Shown: one piece after another, positions 3,951 through 57,431 of the stretch
How positions within the stretch are numbered: position 1 is the first letter of the stretch
How the letters are laid out: every line of letters begins with the position of its first letter
Origin: a plasmid
Strand: one strand, 5' to 3'
Sequence record: NZ_CP067424.1
Length of the DNA: 64,000 nt
Program-made: the position numbers and the translations under genes
The notes under the pieces: generated by a model
Seen by the model: only the letters and a program-made list of their open reading frames with translations
The model's database searches: none
Told to the model about the DNA's origin: nothing

Positions 3951-4004
3951 AAAACAGCCGAGACAATCAAGCCAGGAAGCCCAACCCATTGAATTTAGAG
4001 GATT

Positions 4005-5087
4005 TCAAAAATTTCGAGGGTTTGGGCTTGGAACCCCAACCTGAAGCGATTCGCCACGGCGGCCGACGAGTTCGCCACCTACATAGTGAGCCAGGCAGCG
4101 CTGCCGCTTCTTGAACGACCGGTACGCGGCGTAGCCGTCGCTGACCAGCCAGCCCAGGAAAGCGTCGCCGATCAGATCGCGGATCTCGTCGGCAGACCGC
4201 GAGCCGATGTGGAAGATGGCGGTGCTCGACGACAGCACGACCCACAGCCAGCGTAGGCGGCCGTGCTGCCTCCACGGGGTCTGATCGGCGTGAATCACGC
4301 CGGCCTGCCGCAGGTCGCCCAACAGATCCTCCACGACTGACTCACAGGCGACGCCGACTTCCCGGATGCAACGGTCGAGCGTGCCGACCGAGAGCGGCAC
4401 GTCGAACCAGACGGCCAGAAACTCGCGGATCCTGGTACGTGACACATGATAGCGGACCGACAGGGCGGCGATGAACGTGGCCAGGGCGGGACCGACCAGA
4501 CAGGCCTCACTCAGCAGCAGATCGCGCGAGCGCCCCGGCACCGTGGAGAGCACGCCAAGGCCGGGCCGCGCGGCGGTCCGAACACCGCAGGCACACTCGA
4601 TCGCATGATAGCGGTGCCGCACGCAGGCGATCCGGATGCCGCCGGCGGCGCGCTCCAGGTCGAGCACGAAGTGGGCGCTGTGACCGCTCTGGCGGTCCCA
4701 CATCTCGAACGGCGTGGCGCACGCGGCGCAGAGGATCGGGTAATGGTTCTCGTCACGCTCGGCCTGAAGAAGCTCGCACCGCCAGATCCCTTTGGTGCCG
4801 CGCTGCTTGCCGGGTTTGCGCCCGGAGCGCGCTGGTGGTTCCGGTGCGGAGGGTGAGGCCGATGGCGCGGGCGGCACCGTGCCGGTCGAGGTTCCCGATG
4901 CCGCGCCGAAGGGGCCGTCGGACGACGGCGGGCGCGACGAGTTGGTCGAGTCCCGGGCCAGCTTCTCCGCCTGCTCGATCGCCAGCGCATGCAGGCGGCA
5001 CAGCAGCTCAACCCGGGCTTCCGGGCTCAACCCCTCGAAGAAGCGGCGGTCCATACCGGAAAGATCAACAGGCCTCTTGCGCGTCAT
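4005..5087 (-). pseudogene. IS66-family transposase (TnpC-like), truncated copy
   Basis: N-terminal leucine-zipper-like MTRKRPVDLSGMDRRFFEGLSPEARVELLCRL, a Cys-rich zinc finger, and the DDE region ADQTPW…GWLVSDGYAAYRS…RCLAHYVGG are typical of IS66 TnpC. Only 360 aa; the 3' end runs into and terminates inside the Tn3 IRR, so the last codons are IR-encoded. No tnpA/tnpB companions are present. Confidence 0.7.
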
Positions 5088-20417: not shown

Positions 20418-20961
20418 GTGGATCTCCCTGGCTGCGAGCACAAAAAAAGCCCGCTCCGCGATTGCGGGCGAGCTGGTAGGCGATTGCAGTTGTCCCAAGC
20501 TGCGAACACAACTCGGGTGCCTTTTGTCTACTCCCGTTTAGCTGGGGGCCGCAAGCGAAAAGGTGAGGTAAGACGCGCCTCGGTTCCGCAAGGGCGGCGC
20601 GATCGAGCCTATCAAGGAACCCTCGCCGGCTGCTTGATGATATCTGGCTGGCAACCCTCATTATTAGTGAATCATTTATGTAAAAATATCAATGCGCGTT
20701 GTACAGAATAGGCGGGCAGACGAATGACTTACTATCGGATTAATCGATGGTGTATAGGTTGCCTATTCATAAGTACGTATTGCGCATACCCCAATTACAT
20801 AAATCTATAGATGGATAACTCTAGAGCAGATTCTGTTTTGGTTGAGCAACAGCAGCGGCAAGCCGGCAGCATATGTAAGCATAATAAATAATAAATTTGT
20901 TTAATATACTGAAATGCTTCTAGGTTAATTAAGACGTCATCAGAACCTAAGGAGGAAAACG

Positions 20962-21582
20962 ATGAAAAAGCTTATCCACATGAGCCCCATTATGCTTGTA
21001 CTATTTTTATTATTATATGATCCTACACAAGCATTTTCTCAGTATAAGCATGATCATTATGAAAACCTCGGGAGAGATGTAGAATTTTGGCGCTGGTCTG
21101 TTGTACTAGGCAGAACTGCACAATACACCCGTAGAGGAGAAGTGAGGGTTGATGTTGAAAGCAGAAAAAAGCTGTGTGCCTACAGCCTACATGAAGCAAG
21201 TGGTAACCCTAAGTACTCCAGATCAAATCCCCCAAGAAATAGTATGTCAGGTCGTAATGTATCAAATAATGGTATTACTGTAAGTTACGAGTCCCCATGT
21301 TGGGGAACTCCTGTTGGGGATTTTTTACAGCAGATCGCAACCACTTTAGGTATTGCATTTGGCCAACCTACGACTGGTGCCATCGTAGGCGGAGCATTGA
21401 GAGAGCTGACAACTTCCAGCCAACAGTGTGTCGGTGATCAACGAGCTAGCTGGCTTACTATGCGAATTTATGTTTGGACAGTTCCAGACGGAAGGACCTG
21501 TAACGCACGGGAAACGATGATTAAAGCAGATCAGAGAAGAAGAGAATCTCCAATTCAGCGTTGGTATGGTGATGAGAGGTGA
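20962..21582 (+). CDS. Secreted hypothetical protein (206 aa) in a low-GC island
   Basis: Strong RBS AAGGAGGA. N-terminal signal peptide MKKLIHMSPIMLVLFLLLYDPTQA. About 40% GC, against about 67% for the backbone. Confidence 0.5.
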   Translation: MKKLIHMSPIMLVLFLLLYDPTQAFSQYKHDHYENLGRDVEFWRWSVVLGRTAQYTRRGEVRVDVESRKKLCAYSLHEASGNPKYSRSNPPRNSMSGRNVSNNGITVSYESPCWGTPVGDFLQQIATTLGIAFGQPTTGAIVGGALRELTTSSQQCVGDQRASWLTMRIYVWTVPDGRTCNARETMIKADQRRRESPIQRWYGDER

Positions 21583-22048: not shown

Positions 22049-22783
22049 ATGCCTCACAGATTGAAAGCCTTGTTCCCCGATGCCGAAGTCCTCCTGGGGT
22101 TACCGCCCGAGGAGTTGGGGGGTGTCCTGCTCTCGATCTTGCGTAATGACAGGCCACCACTAAGCCTACACAATTTCGTTAATAATTTATATCAGACTCA
22201 ACTGATCTATCCGGTGGATTACAAGGACCGGGTGGGAGAAGCCATTGCGGAGGCGTGGAATTGGCTGCTCAGCGTCGGTCTTCTTGCGCCTCACCCACGA
22301 CAAGGTGCCGGATGGTACTTCATCACGAAGCGCGGTTGGGAAGCTGCGACTCCGGAGGCTTTCGAGAGTTATCGCAAGGCTTCGCTGATCCCGCGAGACC
22401 TTCTCCACCCGATTGTCACGACCAAGGCATGGCCGAACTTTCTTCGCGGTGACTACGACACTGCGGTCTTTCAGGCTTTCAAAGAGGTCGAAGTCGAAGT
22501 CCGGAAAGCGGGGAACTACGAGAACACCAAAATAGGGAAAGACCTGATGCTCGCCGCATTCCACGAGAGCACAGGCCCGCTGACGGATCAGACGCTTCCC
22601 GTTTCTGAAAGACAGGCTACGGCTTTTCTGTTTGCAGGCGCTATCGGTCGCTATAAGAACCCAGGCAGTCACCGCACCGTTGTTATCGATGAGGCTACCA
22701 GAGCGGCGGAAATGCTGATCCTTGCCAGTCATCTTCTGCATCTTGTCGATGAGAGAATAGCCGACCAGCAATCTGATGAGTGA
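22049..22783 (+). CDS. Hypothetical protein with a C-terminal TIGR02391/Hypoth_Ymh-like domain
   Basis: C-terminal 110 aa (…DTAVFQAFKEVEVEVRKAG…GKDLMLAAF…ERQATAFLFAGAIGRYKNPGSHRTV..EATRAAEMLILASHLLHLVDE) follow the conserved spacing of that family. N-terminal half unknown. Confidence 0.5.
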   Translation: MPHRLKALFPDAEVLLGLPPEELGGVLLSILRNDRPPLSLHNFVNNLYQTQLIYPVDYKDRVGEAIAEAWNWLLSVGLLAPHPRQGAGWYFITKRGWEAATPEAFESYRKASLIPRDLLHPIVTTKAWPNFLRGDYDTAVFQAFKEVEVEVRKAGNYENTKIGKDLMLAAFHESTGPLTDQTLPVSERQATAFLFAGAIGRYKNPGSHRTVVIDEATRAAEMLILASHLLHLVDERIADQQSDE

Positions 22784-22952: not shown

Positions 22953-23498
22953 ATGGCAGTTTACGGGTATGCTCGCGTTTCCACGATCGACCAGGACCTC
23001 ACCCTGCAGCGGGAGGCGCTGACGAAGGCAGGGTGCTTCGTGGTTCGAGAAGAGAAGGTGACGGGGACGACCAGGTCGGGCCGGTCGGAGTTGAAGACGC
23101 TGATGGAATTCCTGCAGCCGGGCGACACACTGATGGTGACGCGCATCGACCGGCTGGCCCGCTCCATCGGCGACCTCCAGGACATCGTGCGGGAGCTGAA
23201 GACCAAGGGCGTGGCGCTGAAGGCGACCGAGCAGCCGATCGACACATCGACTGCGGCCGGGAAAGCCTTCCTCGACATGCTGGGCGTCTTCGCCGAGTTC
23301 GAGACGAACCTCCGGAAGGAGCGCCAGCTCGAAGGCATCCAGCAGGCGAAGGCCAAGGGGGTCTACAAGGGGCGCAAGCCGAAGCTCGACCGGTCAGCCG
23401 TCCAGGCACTGAAGGCGGAAGGCCTGGGCGGCAGCGAGATCGCACGCCGGCTGCGGATCGGCCGGACGAGCGTCTATCGGTTGCTGAAGGCAGGATGA
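22953..23498 (+). CDS. Serine recombinase (resolvase/invertase), full length
   Basis: MAVYGYARVSTIDQDL…GDTLMVTRIDRLARS…C-terminal HTH GRTSVYRLLK. 181 aa. Confidence 0.85.
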   Translation: MAVYGYARVSTIDQDLTLQREALTKAGCFVVREEKVTGTTRSGRSELKTLMEFLQPGDTLMVTRIDRLARSIGDLQDIVRELKTKGVALKATEQPIDTSTAAGKAFLDMLGVFAEFETNLRKERQLEGIQQAKAKGVYKGRKPKLDRSAVQALKAEGLGGSEIARRLRIGRTSVYRLLKAG

Positions 23499-23505
23499 AG
23501 ATCAG

Positions 23506-23760
23506 GTGATGACGTTCGAAGAGATCCTGACCGCGGCGAATGCCGGCGGCGCCCGCGCACCTGGTCAGTGGACCCCGCAAGCATGCCGCACCTGGCGGGA
23601 GGCAGATCCGGAAGATGCGCGCCTGCTCGAAGCCTGCTGGGCCTGGGAGCTGGCGAACGATCGCCGGGTGCAGGCGAAAGACGAACTCGCGGTGACGGAG
23701 CGGCGCCGGACGAGGCGATGGCTGCGGCACGGGCGCACAAAGAAGGGTAGGGCTGCAGTT
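23506..23760 (+). CDS. Small hypothetical protein translationally coupled to the recombinase; a degenerate tandem copy lies at 24049-24235
   Basis: Start overlaps the recombinase stop. FEEILTAANAGGARAPGQWTPQACRTWREADPEDARLLEACWAWELANDRR is repeated (about 75% nt identity) 540 bp downstream without a start codon. Confidence 0.3.
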
Positions 23761-23862
23761 CAGGGGGTTGCGGAAAAAAGGATGCAGGCATGCAGCCTGC
23801 ATTTCCTCCCTCGAATTAATTCGGCGCTAAGACTATGTATGCAGTGCGGTAGCGATACTGCA

Positions 23863-23926
23863 ACGCCTTCTTTCGGGCGTTTCCTCCCTAGACTCAGGCT
23901 GCCTCTTTGTGGGCGGCCTTCTTTTT
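23863..23926 (+). other. Conserved double-hairpin element, copy 1 (hairpin ACGCC-TTCTTTC-GGGCGT, TTCCTCCCTAGACTC, hairpin AGGCTGCC-N8-GGCGGCCT, T-run)
   Basis: Second copy at 53860-53921 with compensatory stem changes. Looks like a Rho-independent terminator or sRNA 3' module on the plus strand. Confidence 0.35.
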
Positions 23927-24296
23927 ACACATATTTCAGAAAATAGCACCTGCTCAAAATAGGGTATGTGAAAGCGTGTAGAAGAAGCAAACTACCCATC
24001 TGTAAGGCTATGAGCGTAATGCGCTATAAAGAGTATCCTGAACGATAACCTTCGAAGAGCTGCTCGCCGCGGCGAATGCCGGCGACGCCAGGACCTCGGG
24101 ACAGTGGACGCCGACAGCCTGTAAGACCTGGCGGGAGGCAGAGCCGGAAGAAGCTCGCCTGCTGGAAGCGGCCTGGGCATGGGAACTCGCGAACGACCGC
24201 CGAGCACAGCCGCGCGACCTGGTCGAGGTCAGTCAGGCAGCGCCGCCAGGAGATGGACGAAGCCACGGTTGCAGCGAGGCAAGGGTAGAAAATGGC

Positions 24297-24340
24297 ACCT
24301 TCAAGGTGGCAAAGATCTTGACGCGCCACCTTGAAGGTGC
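24297..24340. promoter_or_regulatory. Two MqsA-type operator palindromes CACCTT(C/G)AAGGTG flanking a TTGACG -35 upstream of mqsR
   Basis: Palindromes at about 24297-24309 and 24328-24340 match the ACCT-N(2-4)-AGGT MqsA operator consensus. Two copies as in the E. coli mqsRA promoter. Confidence 0.55.
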
Positions 24341-24657
24341 CACATTCCGGCATGGACAAACGGAAGCCCACCTATGATCTGGCGTCATTTAAGGCATCGT
24401 TTAGCAGCGTCGAGAAGTTGAATGCAACTATTGTCGCTCTCCAAGGGGCTAGAAGCCTAGGAATTACGGTTACCGGTATGGTTTCCGTCATACAAACGAT
24501 GGAAAGAAAGCATTTCTACAAGTCTATGACTTCGAATAATGATCATACAGTCTGGCAGGACGTTTACCATGTGCCGCATGATGAGAATGTTATCTACATC
24601 AAGTTCATTGCGGATGTCGTGACAGAGTTTAGATTGCTGTCCTTCAAGGAGAAGTAG
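24331..24657 (+). CDS. mqsR: MqsR-family mRNA interferase toxin
   Basis: …FYKSMTSNNDHTVWQDVYHVPHDENVIYIKFIADVVTEFRLLSFKEK parallels E. coli MqsR (FYKSMTTYSDHTIWQDVY…VSFKEK). Confidence 0.75.
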   Translation: MKVPHSGMDKRKPTYDLASFKASFSSVEKLNATIVALQGARSLGITVTGMVSVIQTMERKHFYKSMTSNNDHTVWQDVYHVPHDENVIYIKFIADVVTEFRLLSFKEK

Positions 24658-25097
24658 TGATGGCTGATACGATGATCTGCCATGAGTGCGGCGGGCACAT
24701 GGCGCGGGCTTCAAAGCCTGTCGAATTTGAGTATAAGGGACATAAGGTTACCTTGGACCAGCCAGGATGGTACTGCTCTTCTTGCGAGGAGAGTGTCCTG
24801 ACGGGTGCCGACATGTTAGCTACGGAACCGGCGTTTTTGGAATTCAAGGCAAAGATTGATGGCTTGGCGCCTCCGAAGGAAGTTTCCCGCATTCGTAAAA
24901 AGCTTAAACTTTCTCAGCGCAAGGCTGGAGTAATCCTCGGAGGGGGTGTTCACGCATTCCAAAAATATGAAAGCGGGAAGGATCTGCCCACCAAGGCTAT
25001 GAGCAATCTGCTTCGCTTGCTTGATAGTCAGCCGACCTTGCTTGAGCAGCTCGTCGCGATCCAAGCACAGCAAGAAAGCGGGAAGCACACCGATTAG
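24657..25097 (+). CDS. mqsA: MqsA-family antitoxin (N-terminal zinc ribbon plus C-terminal XRE HTH)
   Basis: CHECGG…YCSSCEES zinc-binding pairs. RKKLKLSQRKAGVILGGGVHAFQKYESG matches the MqsA HTH (RKKLSLTQKEASEIFGGGVNAFSRYEKG). Start overlaps the mqsR stop. Confidence 0.75.
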   Translation: MMADTMICHECGGHMARASKPVEFEYKGHKVTLDQPGWYCSSCEESVLTGADMLATEPAFLEFKAKIDGLAPPKEVSRIRKKLKLSQRKAGVILGGGVHAFQKYESGKDLPTKAMSNLLRLLDSQPTLLEQLVAIQAQQESGKHTD

Positions 25098-26180: not shown

Positions 26181-26951
26181 ATGGCAGGGCGGGTGCCGCT
26201 GGCGAGGTCGAAAGACGCGCTGATCGAGCGATGGCTGAGGTTCGCGCCGAAGGCCGGCGGAGAGTCGGCAGGGCGGGTTTACCTGCCCGACCTTGGAAAA
26301 CCGAAGGCGGTGCATCGGGGTACGACACGGCTGGGCAGCGGCGAAGGGTCGTCGTACCGTCGCCGCGTGGTGGTGATCTCCTACCATTACCGCATGGCCG
26401 GTGCGGGATACTCTAAGTTGCACAGCCACATCCGGTATGTCGAGCGGCCCGGGGCCGGCGAACGGGCGGTGACGCCGTCGCTGATCGATCGAAACGGCGA
26501 CGGCGTCACGGGCCATTCGGCCGTCCAGGGGTGGCGGGACGACCGGCACCATTTCAGGCTCATCCTGGCGCCGAACGACGGCGCGCAGCTCGACATGGCG
26601 GCCTATACCCGCGAGTACATGGCCGAGCTGGAGCGCCGTCTGGGCACCCGGCTGGACTGGTTCGCGGGCATCCACGAGAAGCCGGACGCGACGCACGCCA
26701 TGAACCGGCACGCCCACGTCATCCTCCGGGGCATCGCCCAGGACGGAACCGACCTGGTGATGGACAGGGAATTTATTCGGTTCGAGATGCGCCGCATCGC
26801 CGAGGATCTGGCGACCCGGCACCTGGGTCCGATGAGCCAGCGGGAGATGGACCGGTATATGGAACGGCAGGCCCAACGGTTGCGAGACGGGGAACGGAAC
26901 TACCACATGGGCCGGCGCCCGATCCGGGGGGAGGATCGCGGCCGTGATTGA
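26181..26951 (+). CDS. Relaxase-like protein (DUF3363 / VirD2-like HUH domain), short form
   Basis: RRVVV…HSHIRYVERPG…HHFRLILAPNDGAQLD…LGTRLDWFAGIHEKPDATHAMNRHAHVILRG matches the N-terminal catalytic region of alphaproteobacterial DUF3363 relaxases (His triad). Only 256 aa; the usual long C-terminal region is absent. Its stop overlaps the T4CP start. Confidence 0.6.
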   Translation: MAGRVPLARSKDALIERWLRFAPKAGGESAGRVYLPDLGKPKAVHRGTTRLGSGEGSSYRRRVVVISYHYRMAGAGYSKLHSHIRYVERPGAGERAVTPSLIDRNGDGVTGHSAVQGWRDDRHHFRLILAPNDGAQLDMAAYTREYMAELERRLGTRLDWFAGIHEKPDATHAMNRHAHVILRGIAQDGTDLVMDREFIRFEMRRIAEDLATRHLGPMSQREMDRYMERQAQRLRDGERNYHMGRRPIRGEDRGRD

Positions 26952-28725
26952 CCTCGGGCAGATCCTGACCAACCCGGAACCGTTCGTGCAGGCCACGCGG
27001 ACGTGGATCGAGACCAACGCCGTGCTGCTGGCCGGCTGCGCGGCCGGCGCGTTGACGGTCGCGGGGGTGGCCGGGGTCGGGGCCGGCTACGTCGTGGACC
27101 GGCTGCGCGATGCGGCCGAGGACCGGCAGCGTTACGGCGGCAAGAGGGAGGCGAAGCGCGCCGGGCTGCTGCGCAACCCGAAGCTGGAGTACTCCGGCAT
27201 CCCCCTGGGTCGGATCGGGCGCAAGCACCTGTGCTGGGTAGACCAGGAGCCGGTGCTGGTGACGGGCGGCACCCGGTCGGGCAAGGGTGTCGGCGTGATC
27301 CGCCCGGCCTGCCTGACCTATGGCGGGCCGATGGTGATGTATGACGGCGGCAAGGGAGAGCTGTTCAGGACGACGTCGGGGTGGCGCAAGCGGTTCAGCC
27401 ACGTCCTGAACCTCGACCTGACCAACCCGGCCGGCGTCCACTTCAACTTCCTGGAGGAGATCGACCCGGCCAACCCGGTGGCCGGGGCCGACAACCTCGC
27501 CAAGTCGGTGCCGCGACCGGCCAGGTCGGACGAGCACTTCGAGGCCGGCGCCGACCGTCTGATGGGGGCGGTGATCCTGCACGTGCTGCACGGGGAGCCC
27601 GACGAGCGCAAGAACATGGCCGAGGTGGTCCGGCTGATCTCCCAGGGAGACGTCGGGATGCGCCGCATAGCCGAAACGAAGGCGCATCCGGTGGCGGTCG
27701 ACCGGATCAACGCCCTGTTCGGCGGCGACCCGTTCGGCGAGAAGTCCGGGGACGGCATGAAGTACCGCGGCATGTTCTACAACGCCGCCCTGGTGCGCCT
27801 GTCGCCCTTCGAGGACCCGATCGTCGCCCGGGTGACAGGCCGGTCGGACTTCAGGATGCGGGACCTGTTTCGGCTGAGCCCGAAGCGCAGGCCGGTGTCG
27901 CTCTACCTGACGACGCCGGCCAGCGATGACGATCGCCTGCGACCGGTGACCAGCATGTTCCTGTCCATGCTGATGGGCGCGATCATGAGGGAGCAACCGG
28001 CGCTGGAAGGGGAGCCGATGTCGCTGCTGGTGGTCGACGAGTTCGCCAGCCTGCGCCTGGAGATCCTGCAGACCGCGATCACCAAGATCGTCGGGTGCGG
28101 CGCCACCATGCTGCTGGGCGCCCAGTCGCTCAACGCCCTGCGTCAGGCGCCCTACGGGCCGTACAACCAGTTCCGCGACAACATCCGCTGCCACGTCGTC
28201 TACGCCGCCAACGACGGCATGACCCAGCAGGAAATCTCCCAGTCCTGCGGCACCGTCACGGAACGGCGCAGGTCGACCAGCCGGAGTCGCTCTTCCGGCA
28301 CCTGGGCGCGGTCGCATACCGAGAGCGTCAGCGAGGTCGAGCAGCCGGTCATCAACCCCGGCGGCGTCCGCCAGCTGAGGGATCGGTTCGAGCTGGTGCT
28401 TATCACCGGTCAGCCCGTGATCCGGGCGCGCAAAATCGTGGACCACAAGGACCGCATCCTGCGCAAGCGGCTGGATCTGCCCCAGGCTGCCCTGCGCGGC
28501 TCCGACGGCGCCTATCCTGATCTGCCGCACCCGCACCGCCCGAGCGCCTGGGCGGGCGTGCCGGTTCACCCGCAAACCCCGGAAGCCATGGCCTCCGGCG
28601 CCGGGGCCGTCGATGACGGCGATTTGCCGGAACCGCCGGCGAATGACGACGCCACCGCTCCCCCTGCCAGGCCGAAGCCGAGGCGCAAGCGAAAGCTGAT
28701 CACAGCCCCTGGAGGTGAAGAATGA
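26944..28725 (+). CDS. traG: Type IV coupling protein (VirD4/TraG family)
   Basis: 593 aa. Two N-terminal TM helices. Walker A VTGGTRSGKGVG and Walker B LLVVDEF. GTG start overlapping the relaxase stop. Confidence 0.9.
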   Translation: MIDLGQILTNPEPFVQATRTWIETNAVLLAGCAAGALTVAGVAGVGAGYVVDRLRDAAEDRQRYGGKREAKRAGLLRNPKLEYSGIPLGRIGRKHLCWVDQEPVLVTGGTRSGKGVGVIRPACLTYGGPMVMYDGGKGELFRTTSGWRKRFSHVLNLDLTNPAGVHFNFLEEIDPANPVAGADNLAKSVPRPARSDEHFEAGADRLMGAVILHVLHGEPDERKNMAEVVRLISQGDVGMRRIAETKAHPVAVDRINALFGGDPFGEKSGDGMKYRGMFYNAALVRLSPFEDPIVARVTGRSDFRMRDLFRLSPKRRPVSLYLTTPASDDDRLRPVTSMFLSMLMGAIMREQPALEGEPMSLLVVDEFASLRLEILQTAITKIVGCGATMLLGAQSLNALRQAPYGPYNQFRDNIRCHVVYAANDGMTQQEISQSCGTVTERRRSTSRSRSSGTWARSHTESVSEVEQPVINPGGVRQLRDRFELVLITGQPVIRARKIVDHKDRILRKRLDLPQAALRGSDGAYPDLPHPHRPSAWAGVPVHPQTPEAMASGAGAVDDGDLPEPPANDDATAPPARPKPRRKRKLITAPGGEE

Positions 28726-29048
28726 CGAAGGTCGAATTCAAGCTCTACCTGGAGCCGAACCTGGCATCCCAGATAACCGAGACGACGGCGCAGTTCCGCG
28801 GCGCCGGCCGGAAGGTCTCCCGCAACGAGGTATTGGAGCAGCTGATCGAGGACGGTTTCCGCCTGTGGCGCCGGGAGGCGCAGGTGGTCAACCGTGTGGA
28901 GGCCGGCATCGCCAAGCTGCTCGACCAGTCGGCCCGCCAGGACCGGCTCCTGCGCTCGATCCTGCTGACCCTTGCCGAGGGCGACCAGGTAGAATACCGC
29001 AGGGTGATCGAAACCATTGAACGCGAGGATGCCGGCAATGCCGCTTGA
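28722..29048 (+). CDS. Small conjugation-associated protein (108 aa), function unknown
   Basis: ATGA overlap with the T4CP stop. Sits between the coupling protein and trbB in the same operon. Confidence 0.4.
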   Translation: MTKVEFKLYLEPNLASQITETTAQFRGAGRKVSRNEVLEQLIEDGFRLWRREAQVVNRVEAGIAKLLDQSARQDRLLRSILLTLAEGDQVEYRRVIETIEREDAGNAA

Positions 29049-30000
29049 GCTGCAGGGGGAGAACCTGACCGCGAACCGGACCGAGGGCATGAGGCGCCTG
29101 CTGGACGACCTGGAGGACGCCTACGGCCCGATCATCCGGACGGCCAAGCAGACGCCGGGCTGCACCGACATCATGGTGAACGAGGACGGCGCGATCTGGC
29201 TGACAGTCGGCGGGCAGGACAGGCCGACCGGCGAGCACCTGACCGAACACGCCGCGCGCCGGATCGTCACCTTGGTCTCGGACATCGACAATCACCCGAT
29301 CGAGAAGGCGGCGCTGTCGGCCAACCTGCCGACCGGCGAGCGGTTCGCGGCCCTGCTGCCGCCCACGGTGCGCCGGATCACCTTCTCGATCCGCCTGCCG
29401 CCGGGGCGGATCTTCACGGTGGACGATTATGTCGCCGCCGGCGCCATGACGGAGGCGCATGCCGACGTGCTGCGCGCGGGCGTGGCCGACCGCAAGAACA
29501 TCCTGATCGTCGGCGGCACCGGAGCGGGCAAGACGACGCTGGGCAACGCCCTGCTGGCGGAGGCGCCGTTCCGGTCCAGCCGGGTCTTCATCATCCAGGA
29601 CCAGGACGAACTGCGGGTGAGTGGTCCCAACGTGGTCCGCGCCTTCACCGGCGCGATGAATGCCCGCGAGCTGGTCCGCGAGGCCTTGCGCCACAAGCCC
29701 GACCGCATCGTGATCGGCGAAATCCGGGACGGGGAGACGGCACTGGAATGGATTGGTGCCAGTAACACCGGCCACCCCGGCGGGCTTTCCACGGTCCACG
29801 CCAACTCGGCGGCGCATGGCCTGTCGCGCATCTCGCGACTGATCGGCCACGTAGCCGCCAACGTGCCGCACGGCGACATCATCGAGGCGGTCGACATGGT
29901 GGCGTTCATCCGGCGGGAGCGGGACGGATCACGGCGCCTGGCCGAGATCGTAAAGCCGACCGGGCATGACGGAGAGAGATACCGGACAGACACCGTCTAG
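29017..30000 (+). CDS. trbB: Conjugal transfer ATPase TrbB (VirB11 family)
   Basis: Walker A GGTGAGKTT. VirB11 motifs DRIVIGEIRD and His box GHPGGLSTVHAN. Start ambiguous (ATG at 29017, 29029 or 29080). Confidence 0.85.
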   Translation: MNARMPAMPLELQGENLTANRTEGMRRLLDDLEDAYGPIIRTAKQTPGCTDIMVNEDGAIWLTVGGQDRPTGEHLTEHAARRIVTLVSDIDNHPIEKAALSANLPTGERFAALLPPTVRRITFSIRLPPGRIFTVDDYVAAGAMTEAHADVLRAGVADRKNILIVGGTGAGKTTLGNALLAEAPFRSSRVFIIQDQDELRVSGPNVVRAFTGAMNARELVREALRHKPDRIVIGEIRDGETALEWIGASNTGHPGGLSTVHANSAAHGLSRISRLIGHVAANVPHGDIIEAVDMVAFIRRERDGSRRLAEIVKPTGHDGERYRTDTV

Positions 30001-30846: not shown

Positions 30847-31110
30847 GACCACCTTTGACCGATCGGACCTGGAGAAAGCCTTTCGCGAGTGCTACGACAC
30901 CGTTCATCGGCATTTCGAACAATTACCCGAATAGTGAGCTGCGCATTAGTGGATGTCATTCAAGATTTTCCATCTCTGGTACGGCAGCGTACCATCAGAA
31001 AACGTTCCTTGTGCTCTCTTCCATCAGGACTGACTAGCTTCAGGAATTTTCCTCCCTGATCTGATGGCCATCCAAGCTCCCGCGGATGGCCACTTTTTCG
31101 TTGGAAGGCT

Positions 31111-32331: not shown

Positions 32332-33645
32332 CTAACAGGCTGCGGAAAAAGGGCTGTGCACGGGCGGGCGGTCGTGATTCTCTTCGGTGGTGTAGACTGC
32401 GGCCGGCGAGGGGACGATGCGGGGATTGGACGAACGCAGCGAGGGTCTGTTCAGCTACGTGAGCTGTGAAGCGCGGGTTCCGGCGAGCCATCCGTTGCGG
32501 CCGATCCGGGCCATCGTGGACGAGGCGCTGGAGGTGATGTCGCCGGCCTTCGAGGGGCTGTACTCCAGGATTGGGCGACCATCGATCCCGCCGGAGAAGC
32601 TGCTGCGGGCGCTGCTGCTGCAGGCCTTCTACTCGGTGCGCTCGGAGCGTCAGCTGATGGAACAGCTCGATTACAACCTGCTGTTCCGCTGGTTCGTCGG
32701 CCTGTCGATGGACGCGCCGGTGTGGGACGTGACGGTGTTCACCAAGAACCGTGAACGGCTGCTGGCCGGCGATGTGGCGGCCAAGTTCCTGGCTAGCGTG
32801 CTGGATCAGCCGCGGGTCAAAACGCTGCTGTCGGACGAGCATTTCTCGGTGGACGGCACGCTGATTGAAGCGTGGGCCGCGGTGAAGAGCTTCCGGCCCA
32901 AGGACGGCAGCGGCGAGCCGCCGGGGCCGGGACGCAACGGCGAACGCGACTTCCATGGCGAGAAGCGCTCCAACGAGACCCACGCCTCGACTACCGATCC
33001 CGAGGCGCGGCTGTACCGCAAGGGCAACGGGCAGCCGGCGAAGCTGGCCTTCATGGGTCATGCGCTGATGGAGAACCGCCACGCCCTGGTGGTGGATGTC
33101 CGGCTGACGGCGGCCACCGGCTTGGCCGAGCGCGAGGCGGCGGTGGCCATGGTCGAGGCCATTCCGGGCCGCCACCGCATCACGGTCGGGGCCGACAAGG
33201 CCTACGACACCAGGGATTTCGTGGCGAACATGCGCGAGTTGGGCGCGGCCCCGCACGTCGCCCAGAACACGAACAACCGCCGCTCGGCGATCGACGGCCG
33301 GACCACCCGCCACCCCGGCTACGCCGTCAGCCAGCGGATCCGCAAGCGGATCGAAGAGGTGTTCGGCTGGATCAAGGGAGCCGGCTTGCGCAAAACGCGT
33401 CATCGCGGCACGGCCCGTGTCGGTTGGATGTTCACGCTGACCGCCGCGGCCTACAACCTGATCCGCCTGCCCAAGCTGCTGGCTGCGGCATAATCACGTC
33501 CGGAGCCCGCCTCAACGGCGGCTCCGCGAGCCCTGGATCGAGGCAAACCGCTCCATCTCGACCAAAACGGGCGTCCAAAGCGCCCTCTTCAAGCCTCGGC
33601 GGAGGCAACGGCGCTGCGAAGGCCCATTTTTCCGCGTCCTGCTAA
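32332..33645. mobile_element. IS5-family insertion sequence with 4-bp TSD CTAA (32332-35 and 33642-45)
   Basis: Imperfect terminal IRs CAGGCTGCGGAAAAAGGGCTGTGC (32336-) and CAGGACGCGGAAAAATGGGCCTTCGC (inverted, ending 33641). CTAA direct repeats match the IS5 target preference. Confidence 0.75.
32417..33493 (+). CDS. IS5-family DDE transposase
   Basis: 358 aa with the N-terminal …HPLRPIRAIVDEALEVMSPAFEGLYSRIGRPSIPPEKLLRALLLQ and C-terminal …RIEEVFGWIK… blocks typical of IS5/IS1031-group transposases. Confidence 0.85.
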   Translation: MRGLDERSEGLFSYVSCEARVPASHPLRPIRAIVDEALEVMSPAFEGLYSRIGRPSIPPEKLLRALLLQAFYSVRSERQLMEQLDYNLLFRWFVGLSMDAPVWDVTVFTKNRERLLAGDVAAKFLASVLDQPRVKTLLSDEHFSVDGTLIEAWAAVKSFRPKDGSGEPPGPGRNGERDFHGEKRSNETHASTTDPEARLYRKGNGQPAKLAFMGHALMENRHALVVDVRLTAATGLAEREAAVAMVEAIPGRHRITVGADKAYDTRDFVANMRELGAAPHVAQNTNNRRSAIDGRTTRHPGYAVSQRIRKRIEEVFGWIKGAGLRKTRHRGTARVGWMFTLTAAAYNLIRLPKLLAAA

Positions 33646-53411: not shown

Positions 53412-53517
53412 GTCCCACGATATCAATAAGTTAGCTGAATCGCCTTGGTTTTGCCCTGTCCCGTAAATTATTGATATCATTGGGACTGTCGAAAAGTCCC
53501 GGCTGTAGTACTACAGC
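53412..53517. other. Dense nest of palindromes (18-bp IR GTCCCAcGATATCAATAA…TTATTGATATCAtTGGGAC, then two short hairpins) adjoining the left 103-bp repeat
   Basis: Read directly: 53412-29 and 53468-86 inverted; GGGACTGTCGAAAAGTCCC; GCTGTAGTACTACAGC. Confidence 0.4.
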
Positions 53518-53614
53518 GGATCGCGTTAAATCCGGATCGCTTTGGAGCGTGATGTCGCCCGGCAACGCCAAAAGAACGGTAGGGATGCTTCGGATTTAGC
53601 GCACGGCACTGTAA
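53512..53614 (+). repeat. About 103-bp repeat, left copy (inverted partner at 57329-57431, about 95% identical)
   Basis: TACAGCGGATCGCGTTAAATCCGGATCGCTTTGGAGCGTGATGTCGCCCGGCAACGCCAAAAGAACGG…GGATTTAGCGCACGGCACTGTAA. Internally self-complementary (GCGTTAAATCCG … CGGATTTAGCGC). Confidence 0.6.
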
Positions 53615-53859
53615 ACGAGGTGCGCCCCCGGCTCCCCGGCAAAGTGCCGGACAGGACGACTTCGCCCGGCAGATCGGACTCCAGCAAGGCTCCACCGCCG
53701 GGACGGTCGTGCCAGGCCGGGGGCATGGCACGCGGGCTTGGGCCGGATGCAGTCCAGGCAGCCAAACGGCATCAGGAAAATGCAGGTACGCATGCCGGCA
53801 CTTTCGATTGAACAGAGTTGGCATTGAGGCTGTTTGCCCAGTACGGCTGCTGTGCCGCG

Positions 53860-53921
53860 ACACCTTCTTTGGGTGTCTCCTCCCTAGACTCAGGCCGCCT
53901 GTCGAAGGCGGCCTTATTTTT
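53860..53921 (+). other. Conserved double-hairpin element, copy 2 (ACACC-TTCTTT-GGGTGT, CTCCTCCCTAGACTC, AGGCCGCC-N7-GGCGGCCT, T-run)
   Basis: Shares the CTCCCTAGACTCAGGC core and both stems with copy 1 at 23863-23926. Stem 1 differs by a compensatory pair (G/C to A/T). Confidence 0.35.
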
Positions 53922-54459
53922 GCACAAAATGGAGCGTTCGCCAATTGCAATCGAACCATCCTGTGTCGTTCTCCCGGAACCGTGCACAGGGAACAGCCTT
54001 CTCGGGGCATGGCGTCGGTCTGCCCGGGCGGGCGCTGCAGGGCGGGCACAACCGCTGGAAAATCGGAGCCCGAGCTTAGTCAACGCGGCCATCCCGGCCG
54101 GAGGACCAGCAGCCCGACGGTGTCGGTGTCGGTGACGGCATGGGCAATGATGATGTTGGCGAGCAGATCCTGGCGCCCATCGTCGAACCCACCAAGGCAC
54201 AGGCTGTCGAGGATACGGGCCAGGACAGAGTGAAGAACCCACATGAGAAGAGCCGACAGGGCCAGCCCCCAGGCAAAGGACCCGCTTCCGAACCCGTGCC
54301 AGCCGATCGAGGCGAGCGGTTGCCTTTCCCAGAGCAGGACGAGCACCACGATGGTCGCCGTCAGGACAAGAAGGTAAACCTGTCGAGGACGCGGGTGCAC
54401 AGGGCGTGCTCGGCTCCGAGGCATCGGTGACCGGACTGGCGCCGCTTGAGGCAGAACAT

Positions 54460-56183: not shown

Positions 56184-57347
56184 ATGACGAACCAGAAGGA
56201 CGTCCCGCGAGCGCCCGGCGCGGTCCAGGCGCAGCCCGGCCTGGAAACCTGGCCCTTCGCCGCGATCGTCCAGGCCTCCGACACGCCGACCCTCCTCACC
56301 GACCCCCGCCTGCCCGACAACCCGATCGTCTTCGCCAACGACGCCTTCCTGCGGCTGACCGGCTACGGCCGTGACGAGGTCCTGGGACGCAACTGCCGCT
56401 TTCTCGGCGGCCCGGGAACCGACCGGGAGGTCCGCAGCCGGGTGCGCACCGCGGTCGAGGAGGTGCGGCCCCTCAGTGCCAGGCTGCTGAACTACCGCAG
56501 GGACGGCTCGGCATTCTGGAACCAGCTGCACATCAGCCCGATCTTCGACGAGGTCGGCATGCTGGCCTACTTCGTCGCCTACCAGCACGACGTCACCGGG
56601 CAGGTCGAGGCGGAGCAGGCCCTGCGGCAAGCCCGGCGGGACCTCGAGGAACGCCTGGCGGAACGCGAGCGCCTGATCCTCGAAGTCCATGACCGGGTGC
56701 GCAACAATCTCCAGACGGTCATCGCCCTGCTCAACCTGGAAGCCGGCCGGGCCGATCCTTCCCTGCGCCAGCAGTTCAACCTGATCACGCAGCGCGTTCG
56801 TGTGCTGGTCGGCATCCACGAGCAGCTGAAGAGCTTCGGCCAGTGGGCGGCGATCGACTTCGGCCGCCACCTGCGGGAGACCTGCGCCGGGCTGGAGGAC
56901 CTGTTCGCCGACACCGTCACGGCCACGGTCGAGGCCGAGCCGCTGCTGTGCGACATCCAGGCGGCGGTACCCCTGGGTCTGATCGCCAACGAACTGATCG
57001 CCGCGTGTTTCCGCCAAGTCACTGGAAGCGGTGCGGTGGGCCGGTGCCGGGTCAGGGTCCAGCTCAGCCACCGACAGGAGACCGGCGTCGTCGAGCTCGC
57101 GGTCGGCGTCACCGGGGCCGGGGAGGCTTCACGGCCGGTCGGCGACCTCCCCGGTCCGAGCGCGATCGTCGACGTGCTGACCGAGCAGATCGGGGCCGAG
57201 CTGGCATTCGACCCGAACGCCGGCACGCGGGTCAGGCTGACCATCCCGGCCCGCTGCTTCACGCTCAGCCCGTCCTCCCCTTCCGGCTCGACCGATCCGC
57301 AGGTCCGGCCCGGCCCGTCCGGCCCGGATTACAGTGCCGTGCGCTAA
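56184..57347 (+). CDS. LOV-domain histidine kinase (blue-light photoreceptor type), HWE/HisKA_2 family
   Basis: Canonical LOV flavin-binding motif GRNCRFLGGPGTD with the adduct-forming Cys. H-box EVHDRVRNNLQTVIALL. The last 6 codons lie inside the right 103-bp repeat. Confidence 0.8.
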   Translation: MTNQKDVPRAPGAVQAQPGLETWPFAAIVQASDTPTLLTDPRLPDNPIVFANDAFLRLTGYGRDEVLGRNCRFLGGPGTDREVRSRVRTAVEEVRPLSARLLNYRRDGSAFWNQLHISPIFDEVGMLAYFVAYQHDVTGQVEAEQALRQARRDLEERLAERERLILEVHDRVRNNLQTVIALLNLEAGRADPSLRQQFNLITQRVRVLVGIHEQLKSFGQWAAIDFGRHLRETCAGLEDLFADTVTATVEAEPLLCDIQAAVPLGLIANELIAACFRQVTGSGAVGRCRVRVQLSHRQETGVVELAVGVTGAGEASRPVGDLPGPSAIVDVLTEQIGAELAFDPNAGTRVRLTIPARCFTLSPSSPSGSTDPQVRPGPSGPDYSAVR

Positions 57348-57431
57348 ATCCGAAGCATCCATGCCGTTGCTTTGGCGTTGCCGGGCGACATCACGCTCCA
57401 AAGCGATCCGGATTTAACGCGATCCGCTGTA
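57329..57431 (-). repeat. About 103-bp repeat, right copy (inverted relative to 53512-53614)
   Basis: Reverse complement matches the left copy with about 5 mismatches. The two copies bracket 3.7 kb holding both kinase genes. Confidence 0.6.

Follow-up and report, generated by a model that had tools for sequence, protein, structure and literature searches.

The question raised by this stretch of plasmid DNA (64,000 nucleotides of NZ_CP067424.1, hereafter the window) is what is encoded by two look-alike double hairpins, for which the initial annotation offered either the 3' module of a small RNA (sRNA) family or a REP-type element. The copies, ACGCCTTCTTTCGGGCGTTTCCTCCCTAGACTCAGGCTGCCTCTTTGTGGGCGGCCTTCTTTTT at 23863-23926 and ACACCTTCTTTGGGTGTCTCCTCCCTAGACTCAGGCCGCCTGTCGAAGGCGGCCTTATTTTT at 53860-53921, have the sequences originally described and share 78% identity over 90 nt (E = 1.6e-13) in a BLAST search within the 64-kb window, which returned no further stretch of comparable similarity to either. 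RNA folding predicts the same + strand structure for both copies, namely hairpin 1, an unpaired CCUCCCUAGACUC, a 9-bp GC-rich hairpin 2, and a U-run, with z-scores of -3.1 for copy 1 and -4.9 for copy 2 (0 of 200 shuffles are as stable); the - strand of both copies folds more weakly than the + strand. A terminator scan likewise places, on the + strand of both copies, a GC-rich stem of 9 bp with a T-run behind it. The CCUCCCU core of the segment between the hairpins, which we call the seed, is unpaired in the MFE and centroid folds of both copies, and the seed is directly followed by AGACUC in each. Hairpin 1, designated SL2 here, has a predicted stem of 5-7 bp. The G:C to A:T covariation previously noted in this hairpin is a true compensatory change, and in the MFE fold it is one of two rather than the only one; between copy 1 and copy 2 an A-U pair is replaced by G-C and a G-C pair by A-U, both through double-sided changes. 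The terminator stem contains one one-sided change, U.G to C-G. The earlier remark that the loops differ is true of the terminator loops alone, as the SL2 loops are nearly the same in both copies.

When the whole window was searched against Rfam 15 with curated thresholds, the only two hits were matches to RF00519 ("suhB", Makes More Granules Regulator RNA, MmgR), one at each copy: 23858-23934 with 46.7 bits for copy 1 and 53855-53929 with 52.4 bits for copy 2, each spanning model positions 1-77 of 77 and each above the curated gathering score of 41 bits. The RNAs of this family, alpha-r8, which belongs to alphaproteobacteria other than the Rickettsiales, are defined by a Rho-independent terminator together with an internal single-stranded 10-mer, 5'-UUUCCUCCCU-3', that sits downstream of a weak hairpin (PMC12559287). 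Usually a single alpha-r8 copy is found beside an N-formylglutamate amidohydrolase gene, although in many genera there are multiple copies, adjacent or dispersed, three of the four Caulobacter siblings lack this linkage, and duplication, along with vertical and lateral transfer, has shaped the family's distribution (PMC12559287). We posit, with a probability of roughly 90%, that both copies are genes for trans-acting sRNAs of the alpha-r8 family, which would silence their targets via the ribosome-binding region; this assignment is made from sequence and predicted structure. The earlier suggestion of a small-RNA family with an anti-Shine-Dalgarno CCUCC and a 3' end at the T-run is thus borne out by scores above the RF00519 gathering score for both copies. 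The description of the element as a 3' module is not, since what was delimited is essentially the whole sRNA minus its 5' stem-loop (SL1), that is, the 3' four-fifths of an ~80-nt RNA; the conserved unit begins ~17 nt further 5' (Table 1).

Table 1. Coordinates of the two sRNA copies, their parts, associated upstream elements, the third candidate, and neighboring genes in the window
Feature	Position	Strand	Description
Putative alpha-r8 (MmgR/SuhB-family) sRNA, copy 1	23846..23926	+	~81 nt; putative 5' end, 3' end at the U-run
SL1, copy 1	23846..23861	+	GCGGUA-GCGA-UACUGC; subfamily-specific 5' stem-loop outside the paired region of the Rfam model; from alignments and RNAalifold consensus
SL2, copy 1	23862..23881	+	AACGCCU/GGGCGUU, 7 bp in the MFE fold; hairpin 1 of the initial annotation
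Seed, copy 1	23880..23889	+	Exact family 10-mer UUUCCUCCCU, anti-Shine-Dalgarno; predicted single-stranded except for the first two U
Rho-independent terminator, copy 1	23896..23926	+	9-bp stem and UCUUUUU
Putative alpha-r8 sRNA, copy 2	53842..53921	+	~80 nt
SL1, copy 2	53843-53858	+	Stem kept via a U-A to C-G change
SL2, copy 2	53859-53877	+	GACACCU/GGGUGUC, 7 bp in the MFE fold
Seed, copy 2	53876-53885	+	UCUCCUCCCU; 9/10 versus the family 10-mer
Terminator, copy 2	53892-53914, then UAUUUUU	+	From the terminator scan
Putative promoter, copy 1	23811..23839	+	TCGAAT-N17-TATGTA; from alignment with relatives
PhaR/AniA-box-like core, copy 1	23840..23848	+	TGCAGTGCG; matches YGCRNYGCR; directly after the -10, overlaps the putative transcription start
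Conserved dyad	23782..23811 including tail (dyad 23782-23802)		ATGCAGGC-ATGCA-GCCTGCAT; A-run before, pyrimidine tail after; upstream of the copy 1 -35
Candidate divergent alpha-r8-like sRNA	31031..31098	+	Exact 10-mer UUUCCUCCCU at 31048-31057; terminator UGGCCAUCC...GGAUGGCCA and U5 at 31065-31098
Hypoth_Ymh-domain gene	22049-22783		Near copy 1
Serine resolvase	22953-23498		Near copy 1
MqsR toxin/MqsA antitoxin pair	24331-25097		Near copy 1
T4SS coupling protein	26944-28725		Copy 1 side
VirB11-like ATPase	29017-30000		Copy 1 side
IS transposase	32417-33493		Copy 1 side

With copy 2 as the query, a BLAST search of PLSDB reveals homologues carried by Skermanella, Indioceanicola, Azospirillum, Bradyrhizobium, and Methylobacterium plasmids. 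Five of the six plasmid loci that we fetched exceed the RF00519 threshold, and close homologues from Skermanella, Indioceanicola, and Azospirillum are among those that pass; the sixth, the orthologue of copy 1 on S. mucosa pSM-1 (L002, ~3981-4056), no longer has the 3' arm of its terminator and falls below it. More broadly, an exact 18-nt core, TCCTCCCTAGACTCAGGC, occurs in 61 stretches among 185,579 species genomes, nearly all of them alphaproteobacterial, with 1-3 matches per genome. An alignment of 18 diverse members was used to build a covariance model (R1), and the consensus of these members contains three helices that correspond to SL1, the weak hairpin SL2, and the terminator. R1 scores copy 1 at 84 bits and copy 2 at 81 bits, and in the fetched loci it picks up 70-odd copies, several tandem pairs among them. 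In 77 distinct sequences, 96.3% of cells are standard pairs as opposed to 39-53% after a 1-3-column shift of the 3' partners, and double-sided changes are present in 17 of 19 pairs, with 0 of 500 shuffles reaching the observed values; the alignment of these sequences was fitted to R1, so that the pair counts lean towards structure. SL1 shows double-sided changes in all five of its pairs in this set, 98% of the SL2 cells pair, and the most conserved part of the element is the unpaired 10-mer seed.

These comparisons bear on the alternative put forward from the start, a REP- or MITE-like repeat that is maintained by selection at the DNA level or spread by selfish dispersal. Two dispersed copies that contain palindromes, a window rich in mobile-element genes (resolvase, IS, T4SS), and a genuine 103-nt inverted repeat pair around copy 2 are features that such a repeat would share, but just two full copies are present in 64 kb, in the same orientation relative to their own T-runs, and the few core matches per genome are spread over many genera. 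Moreover, the strongest conservation falls on an unpaired 10-mer, unlike in REP elements, the - strand folds less well, promoter-like sequence lies 5' of the relatives, and the match to a curated sRNA model is full length. We consider a repeat of this kind very improbable and retain the alpha-r8 sRNA assignment.

Among the fetched loci, six from Hyphomicrobiales, Bradyrhizobium, and Roseiarcus-type sources (L017, L061, L039, L013, L058, and L031) carry two alpha-r8 copies in tandem, with match starts ~210-250 nt apart except at L031, where the spacing is larger (~1.5 kb); these tandem pairs agree with the literature on adjacent alpha-r8 siblings. The S. mucosa pSM-1 locus also contains a second alpha-r8-like copy (L002, 850-938, - strand; 37 bits with R1), located just upstream of a recombinase gene.

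The putative promoter of copy 1 aligns with TTGAAC/TGGAAC-N17-CATTGT in the copies of Skermanella TT6, S. mucosa, and S. aerolata, and copy 2 is preceded by a -35/-10-like pair, TTGAAC-N17-TGTTTG, in which the -10 TGTTTG is poor. Given that a strict sigma-70 consensus scan called no promoter directly upstream of copy 1 or copy 2, these promoters are proposed on the basis of alignment with relatives, and the start sites at ~23846 and ~53842 are likewise predictions; they are in agreement with SisA, in which the 10-mer begins near nucleotide 34 (PMC12559287). A sigma-54 promoter for copy 2 was rejected upon inspection by eye, as the GG-N10-GC spacing is absent. In S. meliloti, PhaR directly binds the mmgR promoter, and the core of its site is YGCRNYGCR (PMC12542648). 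Of 63 related loci, 44 have this core no more than 60 nt upstream, compared with 6% of random 60-nt windows taken from those loci, an enrichment that represents an association rather than a probability given that the 63 loci are phylogenetically related. Copy 1 has a match to this core and copy 2 does not. Based on this retention and loss, we hypothesize that the two copies are probably regulated differently, as judged from their upstream sequences.

Upstream of the copy 1 -35, the initial annotation had described a further hairpin followed by TTCCTCCCT. The sequence is real (23782-23811), but it is not another sRNA copy, because its covariance-model scores are at noise level (9.7 bits and E = 1.4 with R1; no suhB match at E <= 10) and its tail is not the 10-mer in relatives. 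Instead, it lines up with a dyad that those relatives conserve upstream of the -35, where the tail, TTTCCTCCCT at copy 1, reads TTTTTCCCT, TTTTCCATT, or TTTCCTCTGG in Skermanella and the 10-mer is not conserved. From its sequence, the dyad at 23782-23802 looks like a bidirectional terminator that would insulate the sRNA gene, or like an operator.

This upstream region is also relevant to the proposal that the copies are simply intrinsic terminators or 3'-UTR tails of upstream protein genes, with no promoter or trans role of their own and with a likeness that reflects common terminator modules. Canonical terminators do end both copies, and the negative sigma-70 scan is what such a proposal would predict; the orientation of the neighboring genes, which had been suggested as a check on termination, is in keeping with it at copy 1, which lies behind a same-strand small ORF, but not at copy 2, which has no credible same-strand gene upstream. 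Even at copy 1, the interval between the upstream ORF and the sRNA already contains a separate terminator-like dyad, and relatives keep promoter-like -35/-10 blocks and PhaR boxes upstream. Conservation that includes an invariant single-stranded seed and two further covarying hairpins goes beyond a terminator, and alpha-r8 members have been found experimentally to be independent sRNAs (PMC12559287, PMC7143759, bioRxiv 10.64898/2025.12.09.693200). For these reasons we regard terminator or 3'-UTR tails as improbable, and independent alpha-r8 genes as the more probable reading of both copies.

By DNA sequence, the window is closest to Skermanella (Azospirillaceae) plasmids, with ~80-93% identity, followed at lower identity or coverage by other alphaproteobacterial plasmids (Azospirillum, Rhizobium, Methylobacterium, and others). 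The neighbors of copy 1 are listed in Table 1, and those of copy 2 encode a chemoreceptor (MCP), a response regulator, and two PAS-HisKA_2 kinases; based on the genes around both copies, the window looks like Skermanella-type plasmid- or conjugative-element-like DNA. No N-formylglutamate amidohydrolase gene is found beside copy 1, copy 2, or the chromosomal-type S. aerolata copy. A same-strand ORF upstream of copy 1 (23506-23946) formally reads through the sRNA. Copy 1 is flanked by tandem, apparently decayed small-gene copies (23509-23751 and 24042-24290) that resemble WP_202685675.1, a hypothetical protein of 82 aa from S. mucosa; in the first, a 7-nt deletion and frameshift carry the ORF through the sRNA to 23946, and the second has ATA in place of ATG and an end that is shifted.

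The genes downstream bear on a third alternative, that each copy is a cis-acting leader or attenuator for the gene immediately following it. This is reportedly the original 2005 reading of the "suhB motif," and the Rfam family is said to have been first described near suhB genes. However, the decayed gene copy downstream of copy 1 lacks a start codon, the next credible gene downstream of copy 2 is on the opposite strand, and the neighboring genes vary between relatives; in addition, a strong terminator ends each copy and no alternative anti-terminator fold is predicted. Given that no credible same-strand gene follows either copy, we find a cis-acting leader highly unlikely, and continue to treat the copies as probable trans-acting alpha-r8 sRNAs.

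Several other features of the surrounding DNA were observed. The MqsRA pair, the serine resolvase, and the Hypoth_Ymh gene together look like a plasmid maintenance module. The segment 22900-25170, copy 1 included, turns up with 100% identity on short contigs assembled from five unrelated public runs (SRR33478904, ERR14864704, ERZ1030146, SRR29757463, and SRR13356803), reflecting either a widespread element or strain or a common contaminant. The members of the 103-nt inverted repeat pair (53512-53614 and 57329-57431) are 96% identical and bracket copy 2 together with the two PAS-HisKA_2 kinase genes; the same segment is found in three places on the Skermanella TT6 plasmid pTT6-1 with 93% identity, and it may be a MITE or an IS end. 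Finally, AAGGAGGAAA at 20949-20958 is a strong Shine-Dalgarno sequence 4 nt before the ATG of a 206-aa ORF (20962-21582) with a hydrophobic N-terminus, and it is complementary to nine of the ten seed positions; judged by this complementarity it is a potential local target of the sRNAs, although the match may be trivial.

A third region of the window, 31031-31098, resembles the two copies more distantly. It scores 17.8 bits against RF00519, below the gathering score, with E = 0.47 for a search of 701 bases against 4,227 families, or ~0.01 by our own rough rescaling to one family over the whole window, and it is the third-best R1 match in the window (15.3 bits) after the two copies. It holds the only other exact 10-mer on the + strand besides that of copy 1, with a strong terminator after it. 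Its fold has a z-score of ~-3, with the seed partly inside a hairpin loop. On S. rosea pSR-3 and S. mucosa pSM-3 the block that contains it lies downstream of a Crp/Fnr regulator gene and is ~83% conserved, the stretch from seed to terminator is the least variable part of this block, and the orthologues on these plasmids are weak R1 matches (18.8 and 19.3 bits). We tentatively suggest that this region is a plausible third, divergent alpha-r8-like sRNA with its own terminator.

Based on the order of the parts, we hypothesize that each copy is probably transcribed from its own promoter as an ~80-nt RNA in which SL1 would be followed by the weak SL2, the single-stranded anti-Shine-Dalgarno seed (UUUCCUCCCU or UCUCCUCCCU) with AGACUC, and the Rho-independent terminator. 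By analogy with characterized members, the U-tail of the terminator would anchor Hfq, and the seed would pair with the ribosome-binding region of target mRNAs and repress their translation. In Caulobacter, SisA represses many mRNAs through the 10-mer in an Hfq-dependent manner, as proven by compensatory mutations, and is titrated by the sponge CrfA (PMC12559287). In Sphingopyxis, SuhB binds thnR mRNA at its Shine-Dalgarno region, and deletion of suhB results in more PHB (bioRxiv 10.64898/2025.12.09.693200), and the S. meliloti MmgR is an Hfq-dependent RNA of 77 nt with three predicted stem-loops that limits PHB accumulation (PMC7143759) and is activated by NtrC and repressed by AniA/PhaR (PMC7143759, PMC12542648). 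Targets in the studied species have to do with how carbon is stored and used, examples being PHB and phasins, catabolic regulators, and TonB-dependent receptors. We posit that the copies are sibling sRNAs carried on Skermanella-like plasmid or conjugative-element DNA.

Given the RF00519 match, a studied family, and a host type and multi-copy layout that have been reported, the nature of these elements is already known: both copies are ordinary members of a functionally studied sRNA family for which multi-copy arrangements, including laterally transferred siblings, have been described, and any routine Rfam annotation would find them. The practical value of the assignment is that two, perhaps three, regulators are annotated on a Skermanella-type plasmid or conjugative element. 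Mildly new are the covarying 5' stem-loop of this Skermanella/Roseiarcus-type subfamily, which the RF00519 model omits, the PhaR box that copy 2 appears to have lost, and the sub-threshold candidate. The suggested difference between the siblings in PhaR control would be relevant to carbon-storage regulation in Azospirillaceae; if it and the third candidate are real, the replicon would carry a small set of sibling sRNAs with diversified regulation on mobile DNA.

The Betaproteobacteria toxic small RNA (RF02278) similarly has a CCUCC anti-Shine-Dalgarno stretch followed by a GC-rich terminator; however, at 26.0 and 32.5 bits the copies stay well below its gathering score of 50, they lack that model's internal hairpin, and the host is alphaproteobacterial; these weak matches reflect only the common logic of CCUCC plus terminator. 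An Rfam scan of the intergenic region around copy 2 detected no other family. AbcR1/2 and the CcsR "cuckoo" RNAs are also alphaproteobacterial anti-Shine-Dalgarno siblings with C/U-rich motifs, Hfq, and multiple copies, but they carry the motif in hairpin loops and are described by separate Rfam models, neither of which matches either copy. With the alpha-r8 RNAs (RF00519: MmgR of S. meliloti, SuhB of Sphingopyxis granuli TFA, and SisA-D of Caulobacter crescentus), in contrast, the copies share a full-length model match above the gathering score, the succession of weak hairpin, single-stranded seed, and Rho-independent terminator, an alphaproteobacterial host, and more than one sibling per replicon; copy 1 additionally shares with S. 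meliloti mmgR a PhaR-type box at its putative promoter, here as a sequence match. They differ from the family in the copy 2 seed, which is one position off the canonical 10-mer, in an extra covarying 5' stem-loop that is unpaired in RF00519, and, relative to the alpha-r8 "core" copy, in lying on plasmid- or ICE-like DNA with no N-formylglutamate amidohydrolase gene alongside.
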